Translations under genes and position numbers: made by a program
Notes under the pieces: model-generated
Seen by the model: only the letters and a program-made list of their open reading frames with translations
What the model was told of the DNA's origin: nothing
Database searches by the model: none
Part shown: one piece after another, positions 4,419-60,671 of the stretch
Layout: every line of letters starts with the position of its first letter
Position numbering within the stretch: position 1 is the stretch's first letter
Origin: a virus
Reading direction: 5' to 3' (one strand)
Length of the DNA: 64,000 nucleotides
IMG/VR virus record: IMGVR_UViG_3300028394_003336

Positions 4419-4452
4419 TTTACATTTAAACACTATTATTTATTCTTAGTAA

Positions 4453-5280
4453 ATGGGAAATTCAATAACCGCAAATTTAATGGGTGGTCTTGGTAATCAA
4501 TTATTTGAAGCCGCTCACGCATTAGCACAAGGTTGGAAGCACAATAGAGAAACTGTATTCCTTCCACATTCATGGACACCAGGTCAAGGTAGAGGTGCCG
4601 AAAATTACATTAACAATGTATTCAGAAATCTAAAGTTTGTTGAAAGAGTTGAAGACACAACTACAGTAAACGAAGGACATTTTGAATATTCAGAAGTTAA
4701 TCCAGTAGAAGGAGATACCGCATTTCACGGATACTTTCAATCAACAAAAAATTGGTTTGGATTTGACGAAAAAATTAGAGAAATCTTCCAGCCACCCGCA
4801 GAACTTGTAGAAGAGTTCATGGGAAAATACCCTCAACTATCTCAACCAAACACATTATCACTTCACGTTAGAAGAAGTGAGTATCTTCAGTTCCCTGAAA
4901 TACACCCTACAATCAGCATAGAATACATTCAAGAGGCTTTAAAAGTTATTGGTGAATATTCTACCGTTTTTGTATTCAGTGACGACCACGACTTTGTAAG
5001 AGAGAATTTAAACTTCCCTTCAGTTATTTTTGTTAACGAACCTGAAGATTACAGAGAATTATGGTTAATGGGGTTATGTCAAAATCATATCATATCAAAC
5101 TCCACATTTTCATGGTGGGGAGTTTTCTTAAATAAAAAACTAAACAAAAAAATCGTTGCACCATCTCGTTGGTTTGGTCCACGAGGTCCTGAGGCAAAAG
5201 ATATCTACGAATCATATTGGAACATAATTCCTTGTGATTGGATTGAGGGCGGTAAATTAATGCCGATTAAAAATGATTAA
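4453..5280 (+). CDS. Alpha-1,2-fucosyltransferase-like, GT11
   Basis: GGLGNQLF, GYFQS, LHVRR and NSTFSWWG motifs. Confidence 0.9.
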   Translation: MGNSITANLMGGLGNQLFEAAHALAQGWKHNRETVFLPHSWTPGQGRGAENYINNVFRNLKFVERVEDTTTVNEGHFEYSEVNPVEGDTAFHGYFQSTKNWFGFDEKIREIFQPPAELVEEFMGKYPQLSQPNTLSLHVRRSEYLQFPEIHPTISIEYIQEALKVIGEYSTVFVFSDDHDFVRENLNFPSVIFVNEPEDYRELWLMGLCQNHIISNSTFSWWGVFLNKKLNKKIVAPSRWFGPRGPEAKDIYESYWNIIPCDWIEGGKLMPIKND

Positions 5281-5899
5281 TACAAATCCTAATAACAAAA
5301 CATGTGACATAGCACACATCAAAAGTATTATAACAATTAACAATTATGATTTAATTGGTGATGTTATTGAATTTGGAACCTTTACAGGTGGAAGTACAAA
5401 AACTTTATCCTTAACATTTCCTAATAAAACAATATTCACAATTGACCATTTTCAGGGGTTAGAACAAACCAATAAGAACGTACCAAGTGATAGTGATTGG
5501 ATTGAAAGAGCATTTGCATTAGACAATCCATTATATGTTGATAACCACAACATACCCAAATCTATTGATGAAGTTAGAGAAAGATTCATGGGTCATGATA
5601 ACATCAAAATGATTATATCCGATGTTCACGACTTAACAGAACCATCTGATTATGGTATTGGTAAAATTTCTGTTTGTAATTTAGATGTTGATATCTATGA
5701 ACCAGCAGTATCTGCATTAGAGTTTTTAACCAAGTGCGAATGGTCTGAAGTATTCATCAGATTTGATGATTGGCACGGTGGTGAACCAGAATATGACCAA
5801 CATGAAAGATTGGCATTTGTAGAATGGATTGAAAAGTATAACTATAAATTTAACATTACTCATGGTGGATACATCGGTGGTGTTTATGTAAAACGATAA
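5273..5899 (+). CDS. TylF/MycF-like O-methyltransferase
   Basis: GDVIEFGT, DHFQGL, LDVDIYE and FDDW motifs. Confidence 0.8.
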   Translation: MINTNPNNKTCDIAHIKSIITINNYDLIGDVIEFGTFTGGSTKTLSLTFPNKTIFTIDHFQGLEQTNKNVPSDSDWIERAFALDNPLYVDNHNIPKSIDEVRERFMGHDNIKMIISDVHDLTEPSDYGIGKISVCNLDVDIYEPAVSALEFLTKCEWSEVFIRFDDWHGGEPEYDQHERLAFVEWIEKYNYKFNITHGGYIGGVYVKR

Positions 5900-5901
5900 A
5901 A

Positions 5902-6735
5902 ATGGAAAAAAAACAAATTAGAAAAGTATCAGATTGGTGGGGTGAATACGATTGTTCATCAAACCGCAACATGCCAAAACACATTCAATGGCTATCAAGA
6001 GACACTGAAACACCACACGAAGTGAGTGTTTATGTTGATAACTACATCAAAGATTGGGGATTCAATGACCCAAAAAGAGATAAGATTGGATGGTTATTAG
6101 AATCGCCTCAAATGAATGAAGGTACCATCAAATATCTCGTTGACAACATTGACATGACAAGGGAACATTTCAAGTGGATTTTCACTTGTATGGATAGTCT
6201 TATTGAATTAGGTGCTCCATTTGTATACAACATTTCAAATGCAGCCCCTTGGATTTGGGAAAAAAACAGAGCAATTCACCCTAAAACTAAATTGGTATCA
6301 ATGATTGCATCTAATAAAGGATGGTTACGTGGGCACCAAAATAGATTACAATGGGTTGAAAAATTAAAAGATAAAGTTGACTTATTTGGTTCAGGAAGAC
6401 CTAATCAATTGAATGATAAAGAAGATGGTTTAAAAGATTACATGTTCTCAGTTGCAATTGAGAATGATAATTCGGATACTTACTTCACAGAAAAATTAAC
6501 CGATTGTTTTGCGATGGGTACAGTTCCAGTTTATTATGGTTCAAGAAAAGTTGTTGAAAAATATTTTGACCCAACAGGAGTTATCTTCTTAGAAGATGAT
6601 GCTGATTTATCAACATTAACATTAGAAAAATATCAATCATTAATGCCAGCAATTGAAAGGAATTTCATAGCTGCGAATAACCTACCTGTATCGGAAGACT
6701 ACATGTGGGAAAATTATTTAAAAAACTTATTTTAA
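5902..6735 (+). CDS. GT10 fucosyltransferase-like protein
   Basis: YMFSVAIEN...YFTEKLTDCF...VPVYYG motif. Confidence 0.8.
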   Translation: MEKKQIRKVSDWWGEYDCSSNRNMPKHIQWLSRDTETPHEVSVYVDNYIKDWGFNDPKRDKIGWLLESPQMNEGTIKYLVDNIDMTREHFKWIFTCMDSLIELGAPFVYNISNAAPWIWEKNRAIHPKTKLVSMIASNKGWLRGHQNRLQWVEKLKDKVDLFGSGRPNQLNDKEDGLKDYMFSVAIENDNSDTYFTEKLTDCFAMGTVPVYYGSRKVVEKYFDPTGVIFLEDDADLSTLTLEKYQSLMPAIERNFIAANNLPVSEDYMWENYLKNLF

Positions 6736-6736
6736 T

Positions 6737-7552
6737 ATGAAATATCTAGTACTTGGCTCATCAGGGCAAATTGGTGCAGAACTTTGTAAATTCTTAAAGA
6801 AAGAAGGTCATGAAGTTTTGACGTTTGATATAGAAGAAAATTCTATGCAAGATTTAAGAATAAAAGGAATTGTTGATTCACATATTAATGAATCAGATTT
6901 TGTGATGTTTTTAGCGTTTGACGTAGGAGGTTCAAGATACTTGAAGAAGTATCAACACACTTATGAGTTTATAGACAACAATGCTAGACTTATGGTTCAC
7001 ACATTTAACGCATTAAAATCATATAGGAAACCATTCATTTTTGCGTCATCTCAAATGTCCAACATGTCGTACTCTCCATATGGAATCGCAAAAGCTTTAG
7101 GTGAATCTTATACAAGGGCTTTGGGAGGCATTACAGTTAAGTTTTGGAACGTTTATGGTCCTGAACATAATTTAGAAAAATCTCACGTAATTACTGACTT
7201 TATCTTAAAGGCACACAATTACGGACATATCACCATGATGACAGACGGAACTGAAGAAAGACAATTCTTGCACGCTGAAGATTGTTCAAACGCTTTAATG
7301 ATTCTTTCTCAAAAATACAATGAAATAGATAGAGACAAAGAATTACACATTACAAATTTTAAGTGGGAGTCTATTCTTGAGGTTGGATTAATTATTAGTG
7401 AAGAAATTCCTTGTAGAATTACTCCAGGAAAAGATACTGATACAGTTCAACTTAATAAAAGAAATGAACCCGACCCGTATATTTTGAATTTTTGGGAACC
7501 AAAGATTTCATTAAAAGAGGGTATAAAAAGAATAATTAAAGAAATGATATGA
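6737..7552 (+). CDS. NAD-dependent nucleotide-sugar epimerase/dehydratase
   Basis: GSSGQIG Rossmann motif, YGIAK, NVYGP. Confidence 0.85.
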   Translation: MKYLVLGSSGQIGAELCKFLKKEGHEVLTFDIEENSMQDLRIKGIVDSHINESDFVMFLAFDVGGSRYLKKYQHTYEFIDNNARLMVHTFNALKSYRKPFIFASSQMSNMSYSPYGIAKALGESYTRALGGITVKFWNVYGPEHNLEKSHVITDFILKAHNYGHITMMTDGTEERQFLHAEDCSNALMILSQKYNEIDRDKELHITNFKWESILEVGLIISEEIPCRITPGKDTDTVQLNKRNEPDPYILNFWEPKISLKEGIKRIIKEMI

Positions 7553-8643
7553 AAAAAATAGTAATATTAGGAGGAGGTGGATTCATCGGAGGACACCTTG
7601 CAAAAAGATTAAAAGAAGAAGGTAATCACGTTAGAATTTGTGATATTAAAAAACACGAATATTTCTTTCAAGACGAAATATGTAACGAATTCATTTTAGG
7701 GGATTTAACAGACCCTAAGGTCGTTGATTTGGTGATTGAAGAAGGAGTTGATGAAGTATATCAATTAGCGGCAGACATGGGTGGAGCTCTTTATATCTTC
7801 ACTGGTGAGAATGATGCAAATTTAATGCATAATTCAGCAACAATTAACTTAAACGTTTCAAGAGAATGTGTTAAGAAAAAAGTTGGTAAAGTATTTTATT
7901 CTTCATCAGCGTGTATGTATCCTGAACACAATCAATTAGACCCATTAAATCCAAACTGTGAAGAAAGTTCTGCATATCCTGCAAATCCAGATTCAGAATA
8001 CGGATGGGAAAAATTATTCTCTGAAAGAGTATTCTTGGCATACCATAGAAATTATAAGTTAAATGTGAGAATTGCGAGATTCCATAACATCTTCGGTCCA
8101 CAAGGTACGTGGAGAGGTGGTAGAGAAAAATCACCAGCAGCAATGTGTAGAAAAGTCGCAGAGTCTAAAGACGGAGATATTATTGAAGTGTGGGGTAACG
8201 GTATGCAAACACGTTCATTCTTATATGTTGAAGAATGTGTTGAAGCTGTTTTAAGATTAATGGATAGTGATTTTACTGGACCTGTTAATATTGGTAGTGA
8301 AGAAATGGTTACAATTAATCAACTTGCTGGAATGGCAATTGCAATTTCTGAAAAGAATTTAGAAATTAAAAATATTGACGGAGAAGAATTTGTTCAAAAA
8401 TATGGTTTCAAATGCCCTTTAGGCGTTAAGGGTAGAAATTCAGATAATAACCTTTATAGAGAAAAAATTGGATGGGAAGTTAGTCAGCCCCTTTCAATCG
8501 GATTAAAAAAGACTTATAATTGGATTAAGTCACAAGTTGACCATGTAGAAATTAACACTCCTTGGATTTATGAAAGTCCTGATGGGGGTAATTCAATCTA
8601 CAGAAGAGAACCAGGTAGTTTAGATAAACAAAAAATTAAATAA
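7549..8643 (+). CDS. GDP-mannose 3,5-epimerase-like extended SDR
   Basis: GGGGFIG, LAADMGG, YSSSACMYP, YGWEK and REKSPAAMCRK motifs. Confidence 0.85.
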   Translation: MKKIVILGGGGFIGGHLAKRLKEEGNHVRICDIKKHEYFFQDEICNEFILGDLTDPKVVDLVIEEGVDEVYQLAADMGGALYIFTGENDANLMHNSATINLNVSRECVKKKVGKVFYSSSACMYPEHNQLDPLNPNCEESSAYPANPDSEYGWEKLFSERVFLAYHRNYKLNVRIARFHNIFGPQGTWRGGREKSPAAMCRKVAESKDGDIIEVWGNGMQTRSFLYVEECVEAVLRLMDSDFTGPVNIGSEEMVTINQLAGMAIAISEKNLEIKNIDGEEFVQKYGFKCPLGVKGRNSDNNLYREKIGWEVSQPLSIGLKKTYNWIKSQVDHVEINTPWIYESPDGGNSIYRREPGSLDKQKIK

Positions 8644-53812: not shown

Positions 53813-53900
53813 CGGAGAGTGCTGGATTTGAACCAGCGGTACCCTTTAGGAGTACGACAGTTTAGCAAACTATTGGATTAAACCTCTCTCCCAACTCTCC
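53813..53900 (-). tRNA. tRNA-Ser(GCT)
   Basis: GGAGAGT/ACTCTCC acceptor, loop TT-GCT-AA, long variable arm. Confidence 0.9.
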
Positions 53901-53904
53901 ATTG

Positions 53905-53978
53905 TTGGAGTAGGTGGACTCGAACCACCGACATTCACCGTATCAGGATGACGCTCTAACCAACTGAGCTATACTCCA
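53905..53978 (-). tRNA. tRNA-Ile(GAT)
   Basis: Loop CT-GAT-AC; GGTTCGAGTCC T-arm. Confidence 0.92.
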
Positions 53979-53986
53979 ATAAAATA

Positions 53987-54103
53987 AGGTAGAAGCACCC
54001 AAAAGGGGTTTGGCCTCGGGTTACATCACGTATAGGAGCCCTGTGCTCCAACCCCGATATTGTGCGACGGCCGCATCAGTTTCTACTGAATCCTTCTCTA
54101 CCT
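53987..54103 (-). ncRNA. Unassigned structured RNA A in the tRNA array
   Basis: AGGTAG/CTACCT closing stem; GGCC/GGCC, TCGGG/CCCGA and GGAGC/GCTCC helices. Confidence 0.6.
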
Positions 54104-54108
54104 CATTG

Positions 54109-54180
54109 TGTGACTAGAGAGAATCGAACTCTCACATGAAGCGCCACAAGCTTCCGCCCTACCATTAGGCTATAGCCACC
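54109..54180 (-). tRNA. tRNA-His(GTG)
   Basis: GAAGC-TT-GTG-GC-GCTTC; encoded G-1. Confidence 0.9.
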
Positions 54181-54185
54181 ATGTG

Positions 54186-54257
54186 TTGCGGTGAGAAGAA
54201 TTGAACTTCTGACGACTTGGATATGAATCAAGTGTTCTACCACTGAACTACACCGCA
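54186..54257 (-). tRNA. tRNA-Met(CAT)
   Basis: TGCGGTG/CACCGCA acceptor, loop TT-CAT-AT; initiator versus elongator unresolved. Confidence 0.8.
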
Positions 54258-54263
54258 ATTTTG

Positions 54264-54335
54264 AGGTCCCATAGGGATTCGAACCCCAACTCTTTTCGTC
54301 CGTAGCGAAATGTTTTTCCATTAAACTATGGAACC
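54264..54335 (-). tRNA. tRNA-Arg(ACG)
   Basis: TTTCG-CT-ACG-GA-CGAAA. Confidence 0.9.
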
Positions 54336-54339
54336 GAAG

Positions 54340-54410
54340 TTATCCCCTAAGGATTCGAACCTTAAATAATTGGACCAAAACCAATTGTGTTACCGTTACA
54401 CCAGAGGATA
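54340..54410 (-). tRNA. tRNA-Gln(TTG)
   Basis: ATTGG-TT-TTG-GT-CCAAT; U1-A72 pair. Confidence 0.9.
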
Positions 54411-54416
54411 AAATTG

Positions 54417-54490
54417 TGGACCCTCACGGGCTCGAACCGTGGACCTAATGATTATGAGTCATTTGCTCTAACCGACTGAGCTAAGGGTCC
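54417..54490 (-). tRNA. tRNA-Ile2(CAT, lysidine type)
   Basis: GGACCCTTAGCTCAG...GA-CT-CAT-AA-TC body resembles bacterial Ile2 tRNAs. Confidence 0.8.
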
Positions 54491-54492
54491 CA

Positions 54493-54597
54493 AAAACCTA
54501 CCATATGAATGTTTTATCCCCTTACGGGCCACGGCCATTAAGTGCGTCACTTTCATTCATCGGCCATCACACGGTTTCACCGCCTGAGGTAAGTTTT
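54493..54597 (-). ncRNA. Unassigned structured RNA B in the tRNA array
   Basis: AAAACTTACC/GGTAGGTTTT closing stem; CGGT-GAA-ACCG, ATGAATG/CATTCAT and CCC-GTAA-GGG helices. Confidence 0.55.
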
Positions 54598-54598
54598 G

Positions 54599-54680
54599 TG
54601 GGAGTAGCTGGACTCGAACCAACGAACTCAAAAGAGGGGACATTTACAGTGTCCTGCCATTGCCACTAGGCAATACTCCC
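54599..54680 (-). tRNA. tRNA-Tyr(GTA)
   Basis: GGACA-CT-GTA-AA-TGTCC; variable arm. Confidence 0.9.
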
Positions 54681-54686
54681 AAAAAA

Positions 54687-54825
54687 CAGGAAAGGAGAAG
54701 ATGGTCGAGTGGACAACTCCTTTTATGATTGGCATTACTAACGTTGGTTTCAACTCCGATACAGTCGGCCAATGCTTTTTGAGCTCCACCAACAGGCTAA
54801 CCTGTATCATTCCCCAATCAACCTC
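54687..54825 (-). ncRNA. Unassigned structured RNA C (possible double pseudoknot)
   Basis: TGATTGG/CCAATCA, ACAGG/CCTGT, CCGA/TCGG, GTTG/CAAC and AAAGGAG/CTCCTTT helices. Confidence 0.6.
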
Positions 54826-54827
54826 TG

Positions 54828-54900
54828 CACGCATGTCAGGACTCGAACCTGAAACTCCTAGTTTTGGAGACTAGTGCTCTACCAATTGAGCTACACACGC
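54828..54900 (-). tRNA. tRNA-Trp(CCA)
   Basis: CTAGT-CT-CCA-AA-ACTAG; G73. Confidence 0.9.
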
Positions 54901-54901
54901 A

Positions 54902-55021
54902 TTATTTTTTTATAATTCCAGCCTTAACAAGAAACTTACGAGCAGATTTCTTATTCTTACAGGCTTTCTTCGTCACCTTTTTAATTGCCTTGACCATTTG
55001 GTCTATTTGTTTTTTTCTCAT
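54902..55021 (-). CDS. Small basic peptide, 39 aa (not in ORF track)
   Basis: MRKKQIDQMVKAIKKVTKKACKNKKSARKFLVKAGIIKK exactly fills the Cys-Trp tRNA spacer. Confidence 0.55.
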   Translation of the reverse strand: MRKKQIDQMVKAIKKVTKKACKNKKSARKFLVKAGIIKK

Positions 55022-55022
55022 G

Positions 55023-55094
55023 AGGTCAGTACAGGATTCGAACCTGTGTAAATAGTTTTGCAGACTATCGCCTAAGCCACTCGGCCAACTGACC
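55023..55094 (-). tRNA. tRNA-Cys(GCA)
   Basis: ATAGT-CT-GCA-AA-ACTAT; U73. Confidence 0.92.
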
Positions 55095-55099
55095 TTATT

Positions 55100-55432
55100 T
55101 TAATGGGTTCCATTTGTTAATGAAATCCCATGTCTTATTCCTGTGATAAAATCTTCAATCTCACCCTCAGTCATATTTTTATATTTACTCCCAACCATAT
55201 TCCCAATTTCATTACCACAATCACTTAAATCACCTTCATAATCCATTGAGCGACTATATTCTAATAAACTGAATGCAATCCAAGACAAGTCATCACTATT
55301 AAATGTTCTTTCCATATTTTTAATGGATTCTACCAGTTGTTTTCCAAACCATTCTTTCCATTCCTCAAAGGTAAACTTTGAATCAGGATTATCTAAAAGA
55401 AAGTTTTTATATTGTGTTTCTAATGTTGCCAT
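55100..55432 (-). CDS. Hypothetical protein
   Basis: ORF inside the tRNA operon. Confidence 0.7.
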   Translation of the reverse strand: MATLETQYKNFLLDNPDSKFTFEEWKEWFGKQLVESIKNMERTFNSDDLSWIAFSLLEYSRSMDYEGDLSDCGNEIGNMVGSKYKNMTEGEIEDFITGIRHGISLTNGTH

Positions 55433-55457
55433 AATTTTAATTATTTATTATATTTTT

Positions 55458-55691
55458 CTAATGAACCATGTCAAAACTGATGTTATTGTTTGACATTAGT
55501 TCACGGAGTTCTTCCCTTATTTCTTGATAAGCATCATACTTATCTTTTGGTAAATCATCAGACGCGTATTTTGTCTTAGACCTCAAAGACTGGTCCAATT
55601 CCCATAGTACACTCCAAAATTTGAGACCACTATTTGCCAAATCAAAATCTTGTTGGTCATCAGGTAAGTTAAATTCAAGTATTGCTTTCAT
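55458..55691 (-). CDS. Hypothetical phage protein
   Basis: MKAILEFNLPDD start. Confidence 0.7.
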   Translation of the reverse strand: MKAILEFNLPDDQQDFDLANSGLKFWSVLWELDQSLRSKTKYASDDLPKDKYDAYQEIREELRELMSNNNISFDMVH

Positions 55692-55706
55692 AATATACAT
55701 TTTTTG

Positions 55707-55779
55707 TGACCCCGCCGAGACTCGAACTCGGGACTCCTAAATTAAAAGTTTAGTGCTCTACCAACTGAGCTACAAGGTC
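55707..55779 (-). tRNA. tRNA-Lys(TTT)
   Basis: CTAAA-CT-TTT-AA-TTTAG. Confidence 0.92.
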
Positions 55780-55784
55780 TGTTG

Positions 55785-55857
55785 TGGTAACGGTCAGAAT
55801 CGAACTGACGACACCTTGCTCTTCAGGCAAGTGCTCTACCAACTGAGCTACGTCACC
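55785..55857 (-). tRNA. tRNA-Phe(GAA)
   Basis: CTTGC-CT-GAA-GA-GCAAG. Confidence 0.92.
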
Positions 55858-55858
55858 A

Positions 55859-56074
55859 TTAATTCACTTCAATATCTTCCAAAGGTACATCTTCTCCTTG
55901 AGTATGCCTATAAACTGTGTTAAAAAACTCTCCTAACAATCTATAATCCTCAGGAATCATATGACAAAAATCAAATGCAGGAATTGCATCATGAATCTTA
56001 CCTTGAACCACTTTATCTCTTTTTTCATCTGGTTTGTACTCAAACACAATATGACCTCTAAAAATATATTTCAT
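55859..56074 (-). CDS. Hypothetical protein
   Basis: 71-aa ORF between the Val and Phe tRNAs. Confidence 0.65.
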   Translation of the reverse strand: MKYIFRGHIVFEYKPDEKRDKVVQGKIHDAIPAFDFCHMIPEDYRLLGEFFNTVYRHTQGEDVPLEDIEVN

Positions 56075-56075
56075 A

Positions 56076-56136
56076 ACTTCCGATTTTGTCTTGTTTTTAC
56101 TTCCGACTTTGGACGGGTTTTACTTCCGACTTTGTC
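56076..56136. repeat. Three direct repeats ACTTCCGA(T/C)TTTG with 23-nt period
   Basis: Copies start at 56076, 56099 and 56122. Confidence 0.85.
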
Positions 56137-56144
56137 ATTTTTTG

Positions 56145-56217
56145 TAGTCCCTGTAGGAATCGAACCTACGACACCTTGGATGTAAACCAAGTGCTCTTCC
56201 AACTGAGCTAAAGGACT
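56145..56217 (-). tRNA. tRNA-Val(TAC)
   Basis: CTTGG-TT-TAC-AT-CCAAG. Confidence 0.92.
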
Positions 56218-56223
56218 ATAAAT

Positions 56224-56310
56224 GATGACACCATTGACTCTCTCAATGCGTTTACGGCAGGGATTAGTAACCTTATCCTTTCGGAATTCGTCCTCTCTTA
56301 TGCCATCATC
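56224..56310 (-). ncRNA. Unassigned structured RNA D (tRNA-sized)
   Basis: GATGATG/TGTCATC closing stem; TCC-GAAA-GGA and CATTGA/TCAATG hairpins. Confidence 0.45.
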
Positions 56311-56313
56311 TTG

Positions 56314-56385
56314 TACTCGGTACGGGAATCGAACCCGTCTTTTCAGGATGAAAACCTGATGACCTAACCGATAGTCGAACCGAGC
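56314..56385 (-). tRNA. tRNA-Glu(TTC)
   Basis: TCAGG-TT-TTC-AT-CCTGA. Confidence 0.92.
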
Positions 56386-56408
56386 ATTTAGCAAATTTAC
56401 AACCAATA

Positions 56409-56419
56409 TTTCAAAGAAC
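56409..56419 (-). promoter_or_regulatory. boxA-like antitermination motif GTTCTTTGAAA
   Basis: Resembles rrn boxA; a near-identical GTTCTTTAAAA precedes the tmRNA (46076-46086). Confidence 0.5.
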
Positions 56420-56420
56420 C

Positions 56421-56462
56421 AAAAATAAAAAAACCCCGAACTTCATTTCTGTCGTTCAGGGT
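56421..56462 (-). terminator. Attenuator terminator 1
   Basis: ACCCUGAAC/GUUCGGGGU 9-bp stem followed by a U-tract. Confidence 0.85.
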
Positions 56463-56499
56463 CTGTATATATAACTCTCTTCAGGAATTACCAAATCAT

Positions 56500-56574
56500 T
56501 TACACGTCTGAACTACAAGGCATAATCTCATACCAACAAATTTCTTGTTGTTTACTAAAGACTATATGACGCAT
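56500..56574 (-). CDS. Leader peptide 1, MRHIVFSKQQEICWYEIMPCSSDV (in-frame upstream ATG at 56586 adds MNTT)
   Basis: Follows TATTTATA (56592-56599); codons match the 14 downstream tRNAs; 3' part is complementary to the terminator 5' arm. Confidence 0.88.
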   Translation of the reverse strand: MRHIVFSKQQEICWYEIMPCSSDV

Positions 56575-56626
56575 TGTAGTGTTCATGTTATTATAAATAT
56601 ATACCTTTTTATTAAAGTATCAAGTG

Positions 56627-56707
56627 TACCCCAAGTCGGACTCGAACCGACACGACTTACGTCACAAGTTCCTAAGACTTGAGTGTCTACCATTTCACCA
56701 TCGGGGC
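56627..56707 (-). tRNA. tRNA-Leu(TAG)
   Basis: CAAGT-CT-TAG-GA-ACTTG; variable arm. Confidence 0.9.
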
Positions 56708-56710
56708 ATA

Positions 56711-56801
56711 ATCACATCAGACAGGCATTCTACTTCCAGCGCCGAGAAATTGTATCTTATTTAACCCATCTCACCGCTGTATGGGTACCTGAAGATATGA
56801 C
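56711..56801 (-). ncRNA. Unassigned structured RNA E (pseudoknot or switch)
   Basis: GTCATATC/GATGTGAT, CAGGTA/TGCCTG and ACCCAT/ATGGGT helices; loop CAGCG is complementary to downstream CGCTG. Confidence 0.6.
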
Positions 56802-56805
56802 CTTG

Positions 56806-56879
56806 TGATTCGGAAAGGATTCGAACCTTTGACCCCAAACTTAGAAGGTTTGTGCTCTATCCAGCTGAGCTACCGAACC
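56806..56879 (-). tRNA. tRNA-Arg(TCT)
   Basis: CAAAC-CT-TCT-AA-GTTTG; TATCTTTG promoter just upstream (56889-56896). Confidence 0.92.
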
Positions 56880-56907
56880 AATATATTACAAAGATAATAA
56901 AAAAAAG

Positions 56908-57651
56908 TTACTCTGCAAAACTTTCTTCGTAGATGGTATCGTGAGCGTTTTCCTCTACATTATAGGTGTGATTTAATTCAATCGTCATTTCATGGAAGTT
57001 AAATATAAATTCGCCATCTGAACCTTCATTAATTTCCCACCCACCAAAGTTATTTTCAAGTTGTCTATAACACCAATCCTCTATTGAAGTAGGTACTCCA
57101 TCACCGTTTTCTTCAAAACTACTTTCAATATATCCTGAGTCACCTGAACCATTATATTTTACAGTTAATATGCCGTCATTTGGAACCTCAAGGTCATCAA
57201 GAACTCCATCTTTTTCCCATTCCTCAAAAATATCTTTTCCTTCTTCACTATCCCATTCAACACTATTACCATCACCTCTTTGATAAAATGTCCACCAATG
57301 ATTTACTGATATTTCTGATTTTTCACAATCAATATCAAAATCAATTCTTTCGTAATTTAAATCTTCTTCATCAGGTACTTGGAATATTCCATTTTCTTGA
57401 ATATAATCTCCTATTTTTTTCAATATTGGTACTAAACCATCAGGTACTTCGGCACTATAATTGTTTGAAAAATGACTACCCTCATGTTCCCAATCTATGT
57501 CATTAAAATCAAAATCGGCGCTATTGTCAATATCCATCTCAATACTTCCGTCTTGCATTCCAAGTGATGCGAGGTATCTACAAACTCTTCTAAGGTATTG
57601 TTTATCCTCAGGGGTTAATATATTAAATGAATTCACTTTTTTTCTTTTCAT
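56908..57651 (-). CDS. DUF6878-like acidic protein
   Basis: YNGSGDSGYIE...GWEINEGSDG motif. Confidence 0.6.
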   Translation of the reverse strand: MKRKKVNSFNILTPEDKQYLRRVCRYLASLGMQDGSIEMDIDNSADFDFNDIDWEHEGSHFSNNYSAEVPDGLVPILKKIGDYIQENGIFQVPDEEDLNYERIDFDIDCEKSEISVNHWWTFYQRGDGNSVEWDSEEGKDIFEEWEKDGVLDDLEVPNDGILTVKYNGSGDSGYIESSFEENGDGVPTSIEDWCYRQLENNFGGWEINEGSDGEFIFNFHEMTIELNHTYNVEENAHDTIYEESFAE

Positions 57652-57662
57652 AATAATAAATA

Positions 57663-58010
57663 TTAGTCTTCAAGTTTAAGTGTTCTGGTCATCCATTGAG
57701 GTCTTTGGTTGGTTGATATGTTATTAACCCATTCTTTAGCTGACGGAATATAGTTGTTACAATCTTCTTTAACATGTTGTTCTCCAACATATCTGGTGTA
57801 AACTATTTTACCATCACTATTAAGGAATTCAGTACCAAAACGTTTTTCCATCTCAAAAATACCTTCACTATGATGTCTAAACATTCTGTGTAAAGAATCT
57901 CCAAACCATCCTTTGGTCTCATCTAACCATTCATGTAAATGGATGTAATCTTCTGGTTTTCCACCAAATTTTTTGGCGGATGATTTTGCATGTACATTAG
58001 GGTGTGCCAT
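57663..58010 (-). CDS. DUF6915-like protein
   Basis: MAHPNVHAKSSAKKFGG...HEWLDETK...HRMFRHHSEG...GEQHVKEDC. Confidence 0.7.
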   Translation of the reverse strand: MAHPNVHAKSSAKKFGGKPEDYIHLHEWLDETKGWFGDSLHRMFRHHSEGIFEMEKRFGTEFLNSDGKIVYTRYVGEQHVKEDCNNYIPSAKEWVNNISTNQRPQWMTRTLKLED

Positions 58011-58596
58011 TTTTCCAAGAGTTTTTGTCGTATCCAAATAATTGAAAATCTTTTTCTAAAAAGTTATAAACGTAGTTTGACAATGAATTATTATAATATT
58101 CTTGCCAAGGGTTCCTTTTTCCAAATTCAGTTAAATACCCGTTATTTACAATGTTATCTTGAATTATAATTTCTAATTCTTCAGACATATTTTCTTTTAT
58201 AAACCATAAATTTCTAATATCCTCTTCAAGAAATTCTTGTCTTATTAAATAATCAGGAAATCTATTACAAGAAGAATATATTTTTGATAAATTAATCTGA
58301 TAATTTAAAGTTTGAATTGGGAACTCAACCTCTTCTCGCAATTTTTTGATTACCCAATTCCTAAAATCATTTGGTTCTCTTTTTTGATGATGACAATATA
58401 TGTGATAGATTGAAACTAATCTAGAATACGGATTTCTAATATTAGACACACAATAATATTGTTCATGTAATTTGTCTTCTAAAAACCTGTGTGATAAATC
58501 TGTAAAGTCTAAATGTCGCATTATAATGTCGCATGAACGAGTTGCCGCCCTCATAGGTGTAAACCAAAAAACTTTTAAATTATCTGAATATGGCAT
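57997..58596 (-). CDS. Sulfotransferase family 2-like protein
   Basis: PMRAATRS, IRNPYSRLVSIY and KDFQLFGY motifs; paralog of 49115-49732. Confidence 0.7.
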   Translation of the reverse strand: MPYSDNLKVFWFTPMRAATRSCDIIMRHLDFTDLSHRFLEDKLHEQYYCVSNIRNPYSRLVSIYHIYCHHQKREPNDFRNWVIKKLREEVEFPIQTLNYQINLSKIYSSCNRFPDYLIRQEFLEEDIRNLWFIKENMSEELEIIIQDNIVNNGYLTEFGKRNPWQEYYNNSLSNYVYNFLEKDFQLFGYDKNSWKNGTP

Positions 58597-58829
58597 TAAA
58601 ATATTTTTGTTTGTCTCCTTCTAACAATTTCCGCTTCTTTGTACCATCTAATCCAAGTTAAAGATACATCAATTGGTGCCAATAACCAAGCCATCACCAT
58701 AACCATAATGGTGTCTAATTCAGGTGAACCACCTGTGGGGTCATCACTATACCTGTTATTAAGGTTTTTAAACAACTGATAAAAACAATATACTACACAT
58801 ACAAGGTAGTATCCAATAAAAATACTCAT
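58596..58829 (-). CDS. Small membrane protein
   Basis: Start MSIFIGYY; the upstream extension would overlap tRNA-Thr. Confidence 0.65.
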   Translation of the reverse strand: MSIFIGYYLVCVVYCFYQLFKNLNNRYSDDPTGGSPELDTIMVMVMAWLLAPIDVSLTWIRWYKEAEIVRRRQTKIF

Positions 58830-58843
58830 AAATATAAATTTTG

Positions 58844-58916
58844 AGCCTCCTGTCGGAATCGAACCAACGACATTATCATTACAAATGATACGCTCTACCA
58901 GCTGAGCTAAGGAGGC
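58844..58916 (-). tRNA. tRNA-Thr(TGT)
   Basis: TATCA-TT-TGT-AA-TGATA. Confidence 0.92.
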
Positions 58917-58968
58917 AATTTGTGGGTATATGTTCATCACATATTCATGGGTTCCCACACACCCCTTG

Positions 58969-59042
58969 AGCGGATTATCGGGCTCGAACCGACCCTATTT
59001 CACATTGGAAGTGTGATGCCATACCAACTAGGCGAAATCCGC
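58969..59042 (-). tRNA. tRNA-Gly(TCC)
   Basis: TCACA-CT-TCC-AA-TGTGA; GCG start, U73. Confidence 0.92.
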
Positions 59043-59048
59043 TTATTG

Positions 59049-59120
59049 AGCAGTAGAGAGGAATCGGACCTCCGTCTCCACCTTGGCAAGGTGAAGTAAT
59101 AACCATTATACGACTACTGC
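59049..59120 (-). tRNA. tRNA-Gly(GCC)
   Basis: TCACC-TT-GCC-AA-GGTGG; variant T-loop TCCGATT. Confidence 0.85.
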
Positions 59121-59175
59121 GAGAGTGTAGTGGAAGATATCATTCCTGTGGTTACTACACGTTTTACCCACTTTG

Positions 59176-59249
59176 CGGACCGTACGGGACTCGAACCCGT
59201 GAACTCTACCGTGACAGGGTAGCATGATAACCAACTTCACCAACAATCC
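59176..59249 (-). tRNA. tRNA-Asp(GTC)
   Basis: CTACC-CT-GTC-AC-GGTAG; G73. Confidence 0.92.
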
Positions 59250-59255
59250 TTTTTG

Positions 59256-59327
59256 CGTCTCCTCCTGGGTTCAAACCAGGGACTTATTCGTTAACAGCGA
59301 ATCGCTCTATCGCTGAGCTAAGGAGAC
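59256..59327 (-). tRNA. tRNA-Asn(GTT)
   Basis: ATTCG-CT-GTT-AA-CGAAT; G73; variant T-loop TTTGAAC. Confidence 0.85.
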
Positions 59328-59440
59328 TCTTACAAATAACCACAAATTCCAACCTACTATCACTGGAGACAAAAATACAAATATTATTCCTAAAAACAAA
59401 GTCGTAATACTCCAAAATGGATGTTTTTCTTTTTTCATAG

Positions 59441-59513
59441 TAGAGTAGACAGGGTTCGAACCTGCACGCACTTGCTCCCAAAGCAAGGGACCTACCTATT
59501 GGTCAACTACTCT
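59441..59513 (-). tRNA. tRNA-Pro(TGG)
   Basis: CTTGC-TT-TGG-GA-GCAAG; AGAGTAG/CTACTCT acceptor. Confidence 0.88.
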
Positions 59514-59525
59514 ATATCCAATAAT

Positions 59526-59559
59526 AAAAAAACCCTGAACTTTCAAGATTCAGGGTTTT
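59526..59559 (-). terminator. Attenuator terminator 2
   Basis: AAAACCCUGAAU/GUUCAGGGUUUU stem and U7 tract, about 12 nt before tRNA-Pro. Confidence 0.88.
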
Positions 59560-59581: not shown

Positions 59582-59677
59582 TTATCCAACATCAGTATCT
59601 GAATCTAAGCATAGAGTGCCCGTATCACCATTAGGTGTTGTCGGCGTGTTCCCTGTATTTAAATTCAAATGTCTCAT
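59582..59677 (-). CDS. Leader peptide 2, MRHLNLNTGNTPTTPNGDTGTLCLDSDTDVG
   Basis: Follows TATTTATA (59691-59698); N/T/G/P/D core matches the downstream tRNAs; AGAUUCAG pairs with the terminator 5' arm. Confidence 0.88.
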   Translation of the reverse strand: MRHLNLNTGNTPTTPNGDTGTLCLDSDTDVG

Positions 59678-60450: not shown

Positions 60451-60523
60451 AGTATTTGTTTTAATATACCACAAAGATAATAATTAATTTGATTCTACAA
60501 AATTTTTGTTGATATTTATTATT

Positions 60524-60625
60524 ATGATAGACAGAAATAAACAGTGTCTTTTGGGAACAACGACAACGTATGAGAACGTAGATGTAATGAGAATTAAACA
60601 ATCTCGAACCATAAACTATTGCTAA
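60524..60625 (+). CDS. Candidate leader peptide 3, MIDRNKQCLLGTTTTYENVDVMRIKQSRTINYC
   Basis: TATTTAT at 60513-60519, 33-codon ORF, then a strong terminator before the HNH gene. Confidence 0.55.
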   Translation: MIDRNKQCLLGTTTTYENVDVMRIKQSRTINYC

Positions 60626-60639
60626 ATCTGTAGTATATC

Positions 60640-60671
60640 AAAAGGGGACGAGAACATTCGTCCCCTTTTTT
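60640..60671 (+). terminator. Intrinsic terminator upstream of the HNH gene
   Basis: AAAAGGGGACGA-GAACAT-TCGTCCCCTTTTTT. Confidence 0.85.

Follow-up and report, generated by a model that had tools for sequence, protein, structure and literature searches.

A candidate leader-peptide attenuator whose codons match the tRNA genes it precedes in a large freshwater phage

Leader-peptide attenuators include multivalent leaders such as thrL and ilvGMEDA, and the pheM/pheST attenuator of Escherichia coli feeds back on a translation component that supplies charged tRNA. In the pheL scheme, a leader is combined with alternative RNA helices, and a stalled ribosome frees segment 2 (PMC3082878). Here, we analyzed a leader–terminator unit located upstream of 14 tRNA genes on the minus strand of a viral genome fragment (IMG/VR record IMGVR_UViG_3300028394_003336; the whole stretch of 64,000 nucleotides that was analyzed is hereafter the window). 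All features of ribosome-mediated attenuators that can be tested in a sequence were found at this locus, i.e., a short leader open reading frame (ORF), a 1:2 helix, a 2:3 helix competing with a 3:4 helix, and suitably placed control codons, and it is in these features, along with a terminator ending in a U-tract, that the unit resembles the trpL, hisL, pheL, and leuL leaders. We estimate a probability of roughly 0.85 that it is a ribosome-mediated transcription attenuator reading the supply of its operon's own tRNAs, with negative feedback.

The locus also differs from each of the described systems. Compared to attenuators of biosynthesis operons, its targets are tRNA genes, it is phage-borne, its product reads the control codons, and its leader is recoded with the operon; the inputs are 13 amino acids and 14 tRNAs, mostly represented by single codons, whereas biosynthesis attenuators use runs of one to three amino acids. 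The enzyme genes and tandem control codons by which biosynthetic attenuators are recognized were not found, the downstream genes being tRNAs and small unknown ORFs, and the named Rfam leader families (Trp, His, Phe, Thr, Leu) yielded no match over positions 56386-56599, either at E ≤ 1 or at the gathering threshold. The pheM/pheST attenuator has one input and a protein target, as opposed to many inputs and tRNA genes here. In T-box riboswitches, the choice between terminator and antiterminator is likewise set by tRNA status, but the RNA binds the tRNA directly and without translation, whereas an ORF is conserved here; a T-box (stem I with its specifier loop, T-box bulge) had no Rfam match at this locus. 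The L-array of Anabaena PCC 7120 is a reserve of tRNAs, normally silent, whose expression is induced upon translational impairment, although the text of that report contains no leader, attenuation, or codon-matched sensing (PMC8421152), unlike the codon-matched leader described here. Two explanations for phage-borne tRNAs, codon compensation and the replacement of depleted host tRNAs, have been in dispute for >50 years (PMC10264068). Phage tRNA clusters such as those of T5 and SP15 replace depleted host tRNAs against PARIS, retron-Eco7, and PrrC, and several phage tRNAs can be needed at once (PMC10264068, PMC11555353, PMC12409363). Expression of these counter-defence tRNAs has been ascribed to a strong promoter, with no sensor or attenuator mentioned in the papers that were text-searched for one. 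In the literature searched, with most subscription papers outside its reach, we found no description of tRNA genes being controlled through a leader peptide.

The unit is composed of the following elements, listed in the direction of transcription except where they overlap.

56592-56599, minus strand: TATTTATA motif, a candidate phage (late-type) promoter for leader 1
56500-56586, minus strand: leader ORF 1, 28 codons, with a sensing window of about codons 5-21; its ATG at 56586 is kept in all full-length homologues
56575-56584, minus strand: predicted RNA segment 1 (anti-antiterminator) in codons 1-4, which mimics segment 3 and is paired with segment 2 in the minimum free energy fold (duplex of -5.4 kcal/mol)
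56530-56574, minus strand: checklist codons 5-19, i.e., Met, Arg-CGT, His, Ile-ATA, Val, Phe, Ser-AGT, Lys, Gln, Gln, Glu, Ile-ATT, Cys, Trp, Tyr
56508-56517, minus strand: RNA segment 2 (5' strand of the antiterminator) in codons 24-27, with compensatory pairs over 51 clusters of relatives
56421-56463, minus strand: intrinsic terminator, with segment 3 at 56459-56450 and segment 4 plus U-tract at 56441-56421
56409-56419, minus strand: boxA-like element 3' of terminator 1, with a putative function by analogy with the boxA of rRNA operons
56392-56399, minus strand: TAnnTTTG (Bacteroidota -7 element), a possible internal promoter with a start 1-2 nt ahead of tRNA-Glu, given the -7 consensus and its 4-5 nt spacing to the start site (PMC6847099)
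53812-56385, minus strand: the putatively controlled block of 14 tRNA genes from Glu-TTC to Ser-GCT, with small ORFs and structured spacers between them

Most of this anatomy had been outlined in an original prediction made from the sequence alone, and the larger part of it was borne out. The TATTTATA motif is present at 56599-56592, the identity and order of the 14 tRNAs were exactly those given by both ARAGORN and Rfam, and the intrinsic terminator does precede the tRNAs, with a stem at 56463-56432 (-16.5 kcal/mol) and a U-tract extending to 56421. This terminator is near-identical in 10 viral and 40 metagenome loci, although a simple terminator scan of the window did not list it, probably owing to its internal loop. 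The leader ORF, proposed to run from 56574 to 56500, does end at a TAA (56502-56500), but its start had been misplaced: an in-frame ATG lies at 56586 and is universal among relatives, whereas the ATG at 56574 is replaced in many relatives (L004, L094, L018, L031, L039, and L048) and was rejected as the conserved start. The 15 codons from 56574 read as predicted, calling each tRNA once and Gln twice. That no amino acid from outside the set occurs is correct for codons 5-22, but not for codons 2-4 (Asn, Thr, Thr), Pro23, or Asp27. Leader ORF 1 had no Pfam match. The word TATTTAT is found ≤60 nt upstream of 16 of the 63 ORFs in the window, at 4-29 nt from the ATG.

Two chance estimates were obtained for leader 1 under the window's own codon usage: 3.6e-8 for the 14 codons after the 56574 ATG to all lie in the set and cover the 12 non-Met amino acids, and 8.6e-6 for codons 2-21 from the 56586 start to cover all 13 amino acids. 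A paralogous unit lies upstream in the same window.

59582-59677, minus strand: leader ORF 2, paralogue of leader ORF 1, 31 codons, rich in Asn, Thr, Gly, Pro, and Asp
59529-59559, minus strand: terminator 2, ~16 nt before tRNA-Pro, with no space for an internal promoter
56626-59513, minus strand: tRNA block 2, with Pro, Asn, Asp, Gly-GCC, Gly-TCC, and Thr, then Arg-TCT and Leu-TAG
56896-56889, minus strand: TATCTTTG element, which may also drive Arg-TCT, Leu-TAG, and leader 1

In leader 2, 19 of codons 2-21 fall within the downstream tRNA set (p = 5e-7), and the Arg codon is AGA, vs CGT in leader 1.

We then evaluated the codon match across relatives. Loci were identified via the neighbouring DUF6878 protein or terminator patterns, never via leader codons, and leaders were picked by length (20-40 codons) and distance only, with the ORF ending 15-65 nt before the terminator stem; a few terminator matches had no qualifying leader ORF. 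Overall, 128 distinct leader–terminator units were detected before tRNA clusters, including 73 with a complete operon, and 64 of the latter were analyzed (eight were dropped because a simple rule identified no antiterminator core, and one for an unclear boundary). For each unit, the sensing window began at codon 2 and ended four codons ahead of the antiterminator core, and operons were permuted among 31 clusters. In-set codons represented 76% of the sensing window (84% from codon 7), vs 44% when permuted and 41% from genome usage, while 97.5% of the amino acids of operon tRNAs had a codon in the sensing window, vs 59% when permuted (p ≤ 3e-5; 64 units, 31 clusters). When deep clusters were used, the test gave p ~3e-5 with 8 clusters and was weak with 4 (p ~0.03). 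The in-set excess was confined to positions -20 to -4 from the antiterminator core, where it ranged from +0.27 to +0.53, and was ~0 before and after.

As anticipated in the original prediction, homologous units exist, and their codons follow the tRNAs downstream, whether the comparison is made between families, within them, or on a tree. In family 1 (leader 1 type), within-family permutation gave a codon/tRNA agreement of 177.5 vs 152.9±6.5 (p = 7e-5), and in family 2 of 153.3 vs 140.3±4.1 (p = 3e-4). A tRNA present in family 1 had its codon in 116/119 weighted cases (116 vs 2.5). Among independent pairs on a marker-protein tree that differed in a tRNA, the codon changed the same way in 15.5, the opposite way in 0.1, and was unchanged in 30. 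Individual cases illustrate this recoding. In L030-L037, a third, Leu/Arg-rich leader precedes a split-off Leu-TAA/Arg-TCT/Leu-TAG group, and leader 2 has there lost Arg and most Leu codons; L068 lacks both tRNA-Thr and a leader Thr codon, L070 both tRNA-Glu and a Glu codon, and Asn and Gly codons are present in L011, L053, and L072, where these tRNAs moved into cluster 1. Across larger distances, leaders rich in Ser, Lys, His, Phe, and Trp lie ahead of Trp/His/Lys/Phe-rich clusters in L267 and L264, and the very different leaders of L267, L213, L157, and L412 each match their own cluster. In L412, for instance, a Leu/Ser/His/Tyr leader precedes His, Ser, Ser, Tyr, and three Leu tRNAs. The rule is asymmetric: where a tRNA is present, its codon almost always is as well, while the codon often lingers where the tRNA has been lost. 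The predicted match of each tRNA in the leader consequently stands for the tRNAs that are present, whereas a strict one-to-one correspondence in all relatives was rejected, as a lost tRNA often leaves its codon behind.

The match had also been predicted to reach the isoacceptor level, which was found across relatives for Arg, Ser-AGY, and Ile-ATA. Arg codons were CGN in 5.5/5.5 cases where only CGN-box tRNAs follow (genome share 0.13), with AGR at 16/16, and Ser codons were AGY in 9.9/10.9 (genome share 0.22). For Ile, CAT tRNAs were classed by similarity scoring, and an ATA codon and an Ile2-like CAT or Ile-TAT tRNA were both present in 14 units and both absent in 11, with the codon only in 5 and the tRNA only in 2; this co-variation backs the earlier assignment of Ile2 in the window. 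The second CAT tRNA (54185-54257, minus strand) is atypical, with U1, an anticodon-stem mismatch, and without the initiator's three G-C pairs. It would be an elongator Met tRNA, by exclusion only, and since the Met codon at 56574 becomes internal once the start is at 56586, this codon fits an elongator tRNA-Met better.

In the sensing windows of the 64 units, the codon pairing by Watson-Crick rules tended to be avoided for several tRNAs: Pro CCA represented 1/27 (genome 0.55), His CAC 1/16 (0.39), Glu GAA 0.48 (0.84), and Gly GGA 0.08 (0.37). This avoidance may raise sensitivity or may also report tRNA modification.

The second line of evidence comes from the RNA. The leader 3' end (56517-56508) pairs at 9 of 10 positions with 56459-56450 in the terminator (-8.2 kcal/mol), as proposed, and this 2:3 helix co-varies across relatives. 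Its six core positions are 94-100% paired over 51 clusters, with double changes between CUGAAC/GUUCAG (21 clusters), CCGAAC/GUUCGG (13), and CUGAAU/AUUCAG (~2), and C:G, U:A, and A:U pairs are all found at the position adjoining the core. Over the same clusters, own 2:3 partners reached -10.2 vs -7.7 kcal/mol for swapped ones (p = 3e-5). The 1:2 (anti-antiterminator) helix is also partner-specific (-6.6 kcal/mol for own pairs vs -5.1 for swapped ones over 51 clusters, p = 3e-5, and vs -4.3 for shuffled 5' ends), yet weak in some lineages. Judging from these pairings, segment 1, formed by the Asn-Thr-Thr codons, would complete a trp-like 1:2/2:3/3:4 switch, and the conserved start motif would be explained by the RNA at 56584-56575 mimicking the terminator 5' arm and pairing with the antiterminator strand. 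In 109/128 units, the antiterminator core lies at codons 25-28, with the stop codon at -2 to +15 relative to the core.

To model the effect of a ribosome, nascent RNA was folded without segment 4, with the nucleotides from -12 to +15 relative to the P site barred from pairing to represent the ribosome footprint. In both window leaders, the predicted probability of 2:3 was near 1 at most A-site codons from 2 to 21 (two codons of leader 1 gave 0.55-0.6, and one codon of leader 2 gave 0.22) and was lost from codon 22-23 on, in line with the predicted covering of the antiterminator by an advancing ribosome; the cut-off of leader 2 falls at codon 21/22, as in leader 1. Across 47 clusters, predicted 2:3 pairing fell from 0.84 at -4 to 0.02 at -2. 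This drop coincides with the independently determined end of the codon match.

The mechanism suggested by these patterns would proceed as follows. Polymerase would transcribe the leader with a ribosome following. If cognate tRNAs are abundant, the ribosome would pass codon ~21 and cover segment 2, so that the 3:4 terminator forms and transcription ends ahead of tRNA-Glu. Should any of the tRNAs for codons 5-21 be scarce, the ribosome would linger upstream and keep segment 1 from pairing, leaving segment 2 free; the 2:3 helix would then form before segment 4 is made, and polymerase would read into the 14 tRNA genes. Without translation, 1:2 pairing would compete for segment 2 and favour termination. 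The new phage tRNAs would read the same codons, closing a negative feedback loop on tRNA supply. Some basal or early expression probably comes from the host-type promoter downstream. We infer that the leader is translated in step with its transcription, that folding is kinetic, that read-through is regulated, and that the physiological trigger is tRNA cleavage or decay during infection. The mostly single codons may act as an OR gate for the severe loss of one tRNA, and through summed dwell time for a mild shortage.

Several observations weigh against this reading. In family 1, a lost tRNA had left its codon in 30 weighted cases vs 61 in which the codon was gone (see also L004, L009, and L011). 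The pooled sign test on tree pairs (p = 3e-5) combines amino acids that are not fully independent, and no amino acid was significant alone in the tree test. Isoacceptor matching was rejected for Gly, as GGR is not preferred in Gly-TCC-only operons (5/16), and is not clear for Leu, CTN being used in just 4/7 Leu-TAG-only operons. The footprint boundary of -12 to +15 nt is an assumed standard value, the mean 2:3 probability is still 0.67 on truncated RNA without a ribosome, and in full-length RNA at equilibrium the terminator wins at every ribosome position. The 2:3 pairing that persists without a ribosome means that an untranslated OFF state is supported only in part, and by analogy with known attenuators, a terminator that always wins at equilibrium implies that the switch would have to be kinetic. 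Finally, a -7 element follows the terminator in 81/128 units, including unit 1 of the window.

Among alternative explanations, the one that survives best retains the attenuator but has it mainly read a general slow-down of translation or amino-acid charging (starvation, antibiotics, ribosome damage) instead of tRNA loss, with the codon match tuning each block. A stall does report a missing charged tRNA whatever its cause, as established for pheL (PMC3082878), translational impairment induces the cyanobacterial tRNA array (PMC8421152), and leader codons lean towards wobble-read codons that are possibly slower, with Pro CCA and His CAC avoided. However, isoacceptor-level matching (CGT vs AGA, AGT, ATA) points to tRNA species and not amino acids, the recoding of leaders upon tRNA moves implies selection for specificity, and an extra tRNA would presumably give no relief from amino-acid starvation. 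We thus regard this explanation as improbable.

Still less probable, in our view, is that the tRNAs are mainly transcribed from the host-type promoter after the terminator, with the leader–terminator unit being a minor or vestigial input or the end of an upstream transcript. Consistent with such a promoter, the TAnnTTTG at 56399-56392 is correctly spaced before tRNA-Glu, similar elements occur in the 81 units mentioned above, and codons lag behind tRNA loss. Decayed units point in the same direction: the third leader of L018 (10700-10800) is deleted while its terminator and -7 element remain, the unit 2 leader is missing before tRNA-Pro in L070, L124, and L128 with the terminator retained, and the end of the upstream gene abuts the terminator in decayed units. 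Because of this promoter motif, the cluster may not depend wholly on read-through. An internal promoter does not, however, explain why codons and base pairs have kept co-varying across 51 clusters, nor the units with no space for a promoter. In total, 47/128 units, including unit 2 of the window, are without an internal -7 element, and several of these terminators lie only 6-16 nt before the first tRNA, so that these units would need read-through. The simplest reading combines a basal host-type promoter with an attenuated upstream transcript, in which case the switch may boost tRNA output instead of fully gating it.

The last alternative, in which the ORF would encode a small functional peptide ahead of an ordinary terminator, or the codon match would be due to chance, is largely refuted: a Gln-Gln...Cys-Trp-Tyr core is indeed kept in family 1, but it is the residues with the most often retained tRNAs that are conserved, the paralogues share RNA elements while encoding unrelated peptides matched to their own tRNAs, and the match, with probabilities of 1e-5 to 1e-8, ends at the footprint boundary.

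Additional promoter-like elements were observed around these units. A boxA-like word follows the terminator in 75/128 units. A Bacteroidota -7 element occupies the place of the leader promoter in 44/128 units, and TATTTAT is missing in 40 of these 44. In L001 (8125-8176) and L002 (8287-8337), a -7 element follows terminator 2, an element that unit 2 of the window has lost; in L001, a TTG in the terminator 2 loop lies 20 nt upstream of the -7 element, and the host promoter may thus overlap the terminator.

The window belongs to a large, T4-like freshwater phage and carries genes for portal, terminase, major capsid, and ClpB-like proteins as well as for a tmRNA. The top matches of its capsid protein were to an uncultured phage (46% identity) and to Microcystis phage Mel-JY01 and Flavobacterium phage immuto (~41%). 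Rfam matched three tRNAs in immuto and one in Mel-JY01; no leader of this type was seen by eye in immuto, and cultured phages yielded only tRNA matches or short chance matches to the leader-unit sequence. A Bacteroidota host appears likely, because a Shine-Dalgarno-like word was found in 1/63 ORFs and TAnnTTTG elements lie before genes and tRNAs, scarce Shine-Dalgarno words and TAnnTTTG elements being known Bacteroidota traits (PMC6847099). The distant unit L412 (locus positions 4445-7617) comes from a 375-kb contig, JAVTWD010000016.1, which is phage-like but was binned into a metagenome-assembled genome of Bacteroidota. It was the one real unit among the matches listed in a terminator-pattern scan of prokaryote genomes, which were mostly unrelated, and no chromosomal source of leader units was seen among them. 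In L412, the cluster is followed by a homing-endonuclease-like ORF and a 431-aa ORF resembling a shortened leucyl-tRNA synthetase (motifs judged by eye).

Other features of the window were also noted. Structured spacer RNAs lie between tRNA genes on the minus strand at 56218-56312 (z -3.2), 53980-54107 (-4.3), 56708-56804 (-3.3), and 54495-54597 (-2.4), none with an Rfam match, while the spacer at 54685-54826 is no more stable than its shuffles. The tmRNA (Rfam RF00023; 46090-46487, plus strand) was missed by ARAGORN and has a -7 element and a boxA-like word ahead of it; the tag frame that it seems to encode looks longer than is typical of Bacteroidota tags. At 60513-60671 (plus strand), a short ORF and a strong terminator (60640-60669) precede an HNH gene, divergent from the tRNA region.

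Returning to the attenuator reading, the trigger may plausibly be anticodon-nuclease defence, by analogy with the phage systems described above. PrrC and PARIS are known to target tRNA-Lys, and L267, L264, and L257 carry about four Lys tRNAs, with repeated His/Phe/Trp or Ser/Arg, behind Lys/Ser/His-rich leaders. Beyond the single locus, we give somewhat better than even odds to a broader proposal, namely that a widespread clade of large Bacteroidota-type phages performs modular, evolvable surveillance of the tRNA pool, in which the checklist of each block would detect depletion of any member (e.g., by anticodon nucleases) and switch on replacement tRNAs whose products shut the switch. If true, this would represent an inducible form of counter-defence and the first example of tRNA genes placed under feedback through attenuation. 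The attenuator reading by itself would widen attenuation from one-to-three inputs to 13-14, with tRNA genes in place of enzymes as targets. The leaders would also record which tRNA species each phage monitors, would help to decide between Ile2 and Met for CAT tRNAs of ambiguous identity, and could serve as a natural multiplex reporter of tRNA depletion. Regarding the long-standing question of why phages carry tRNAs, a sensor switching these genes on when their own codons are read slowly would argue for on-demand replacement, and makes the question testable.

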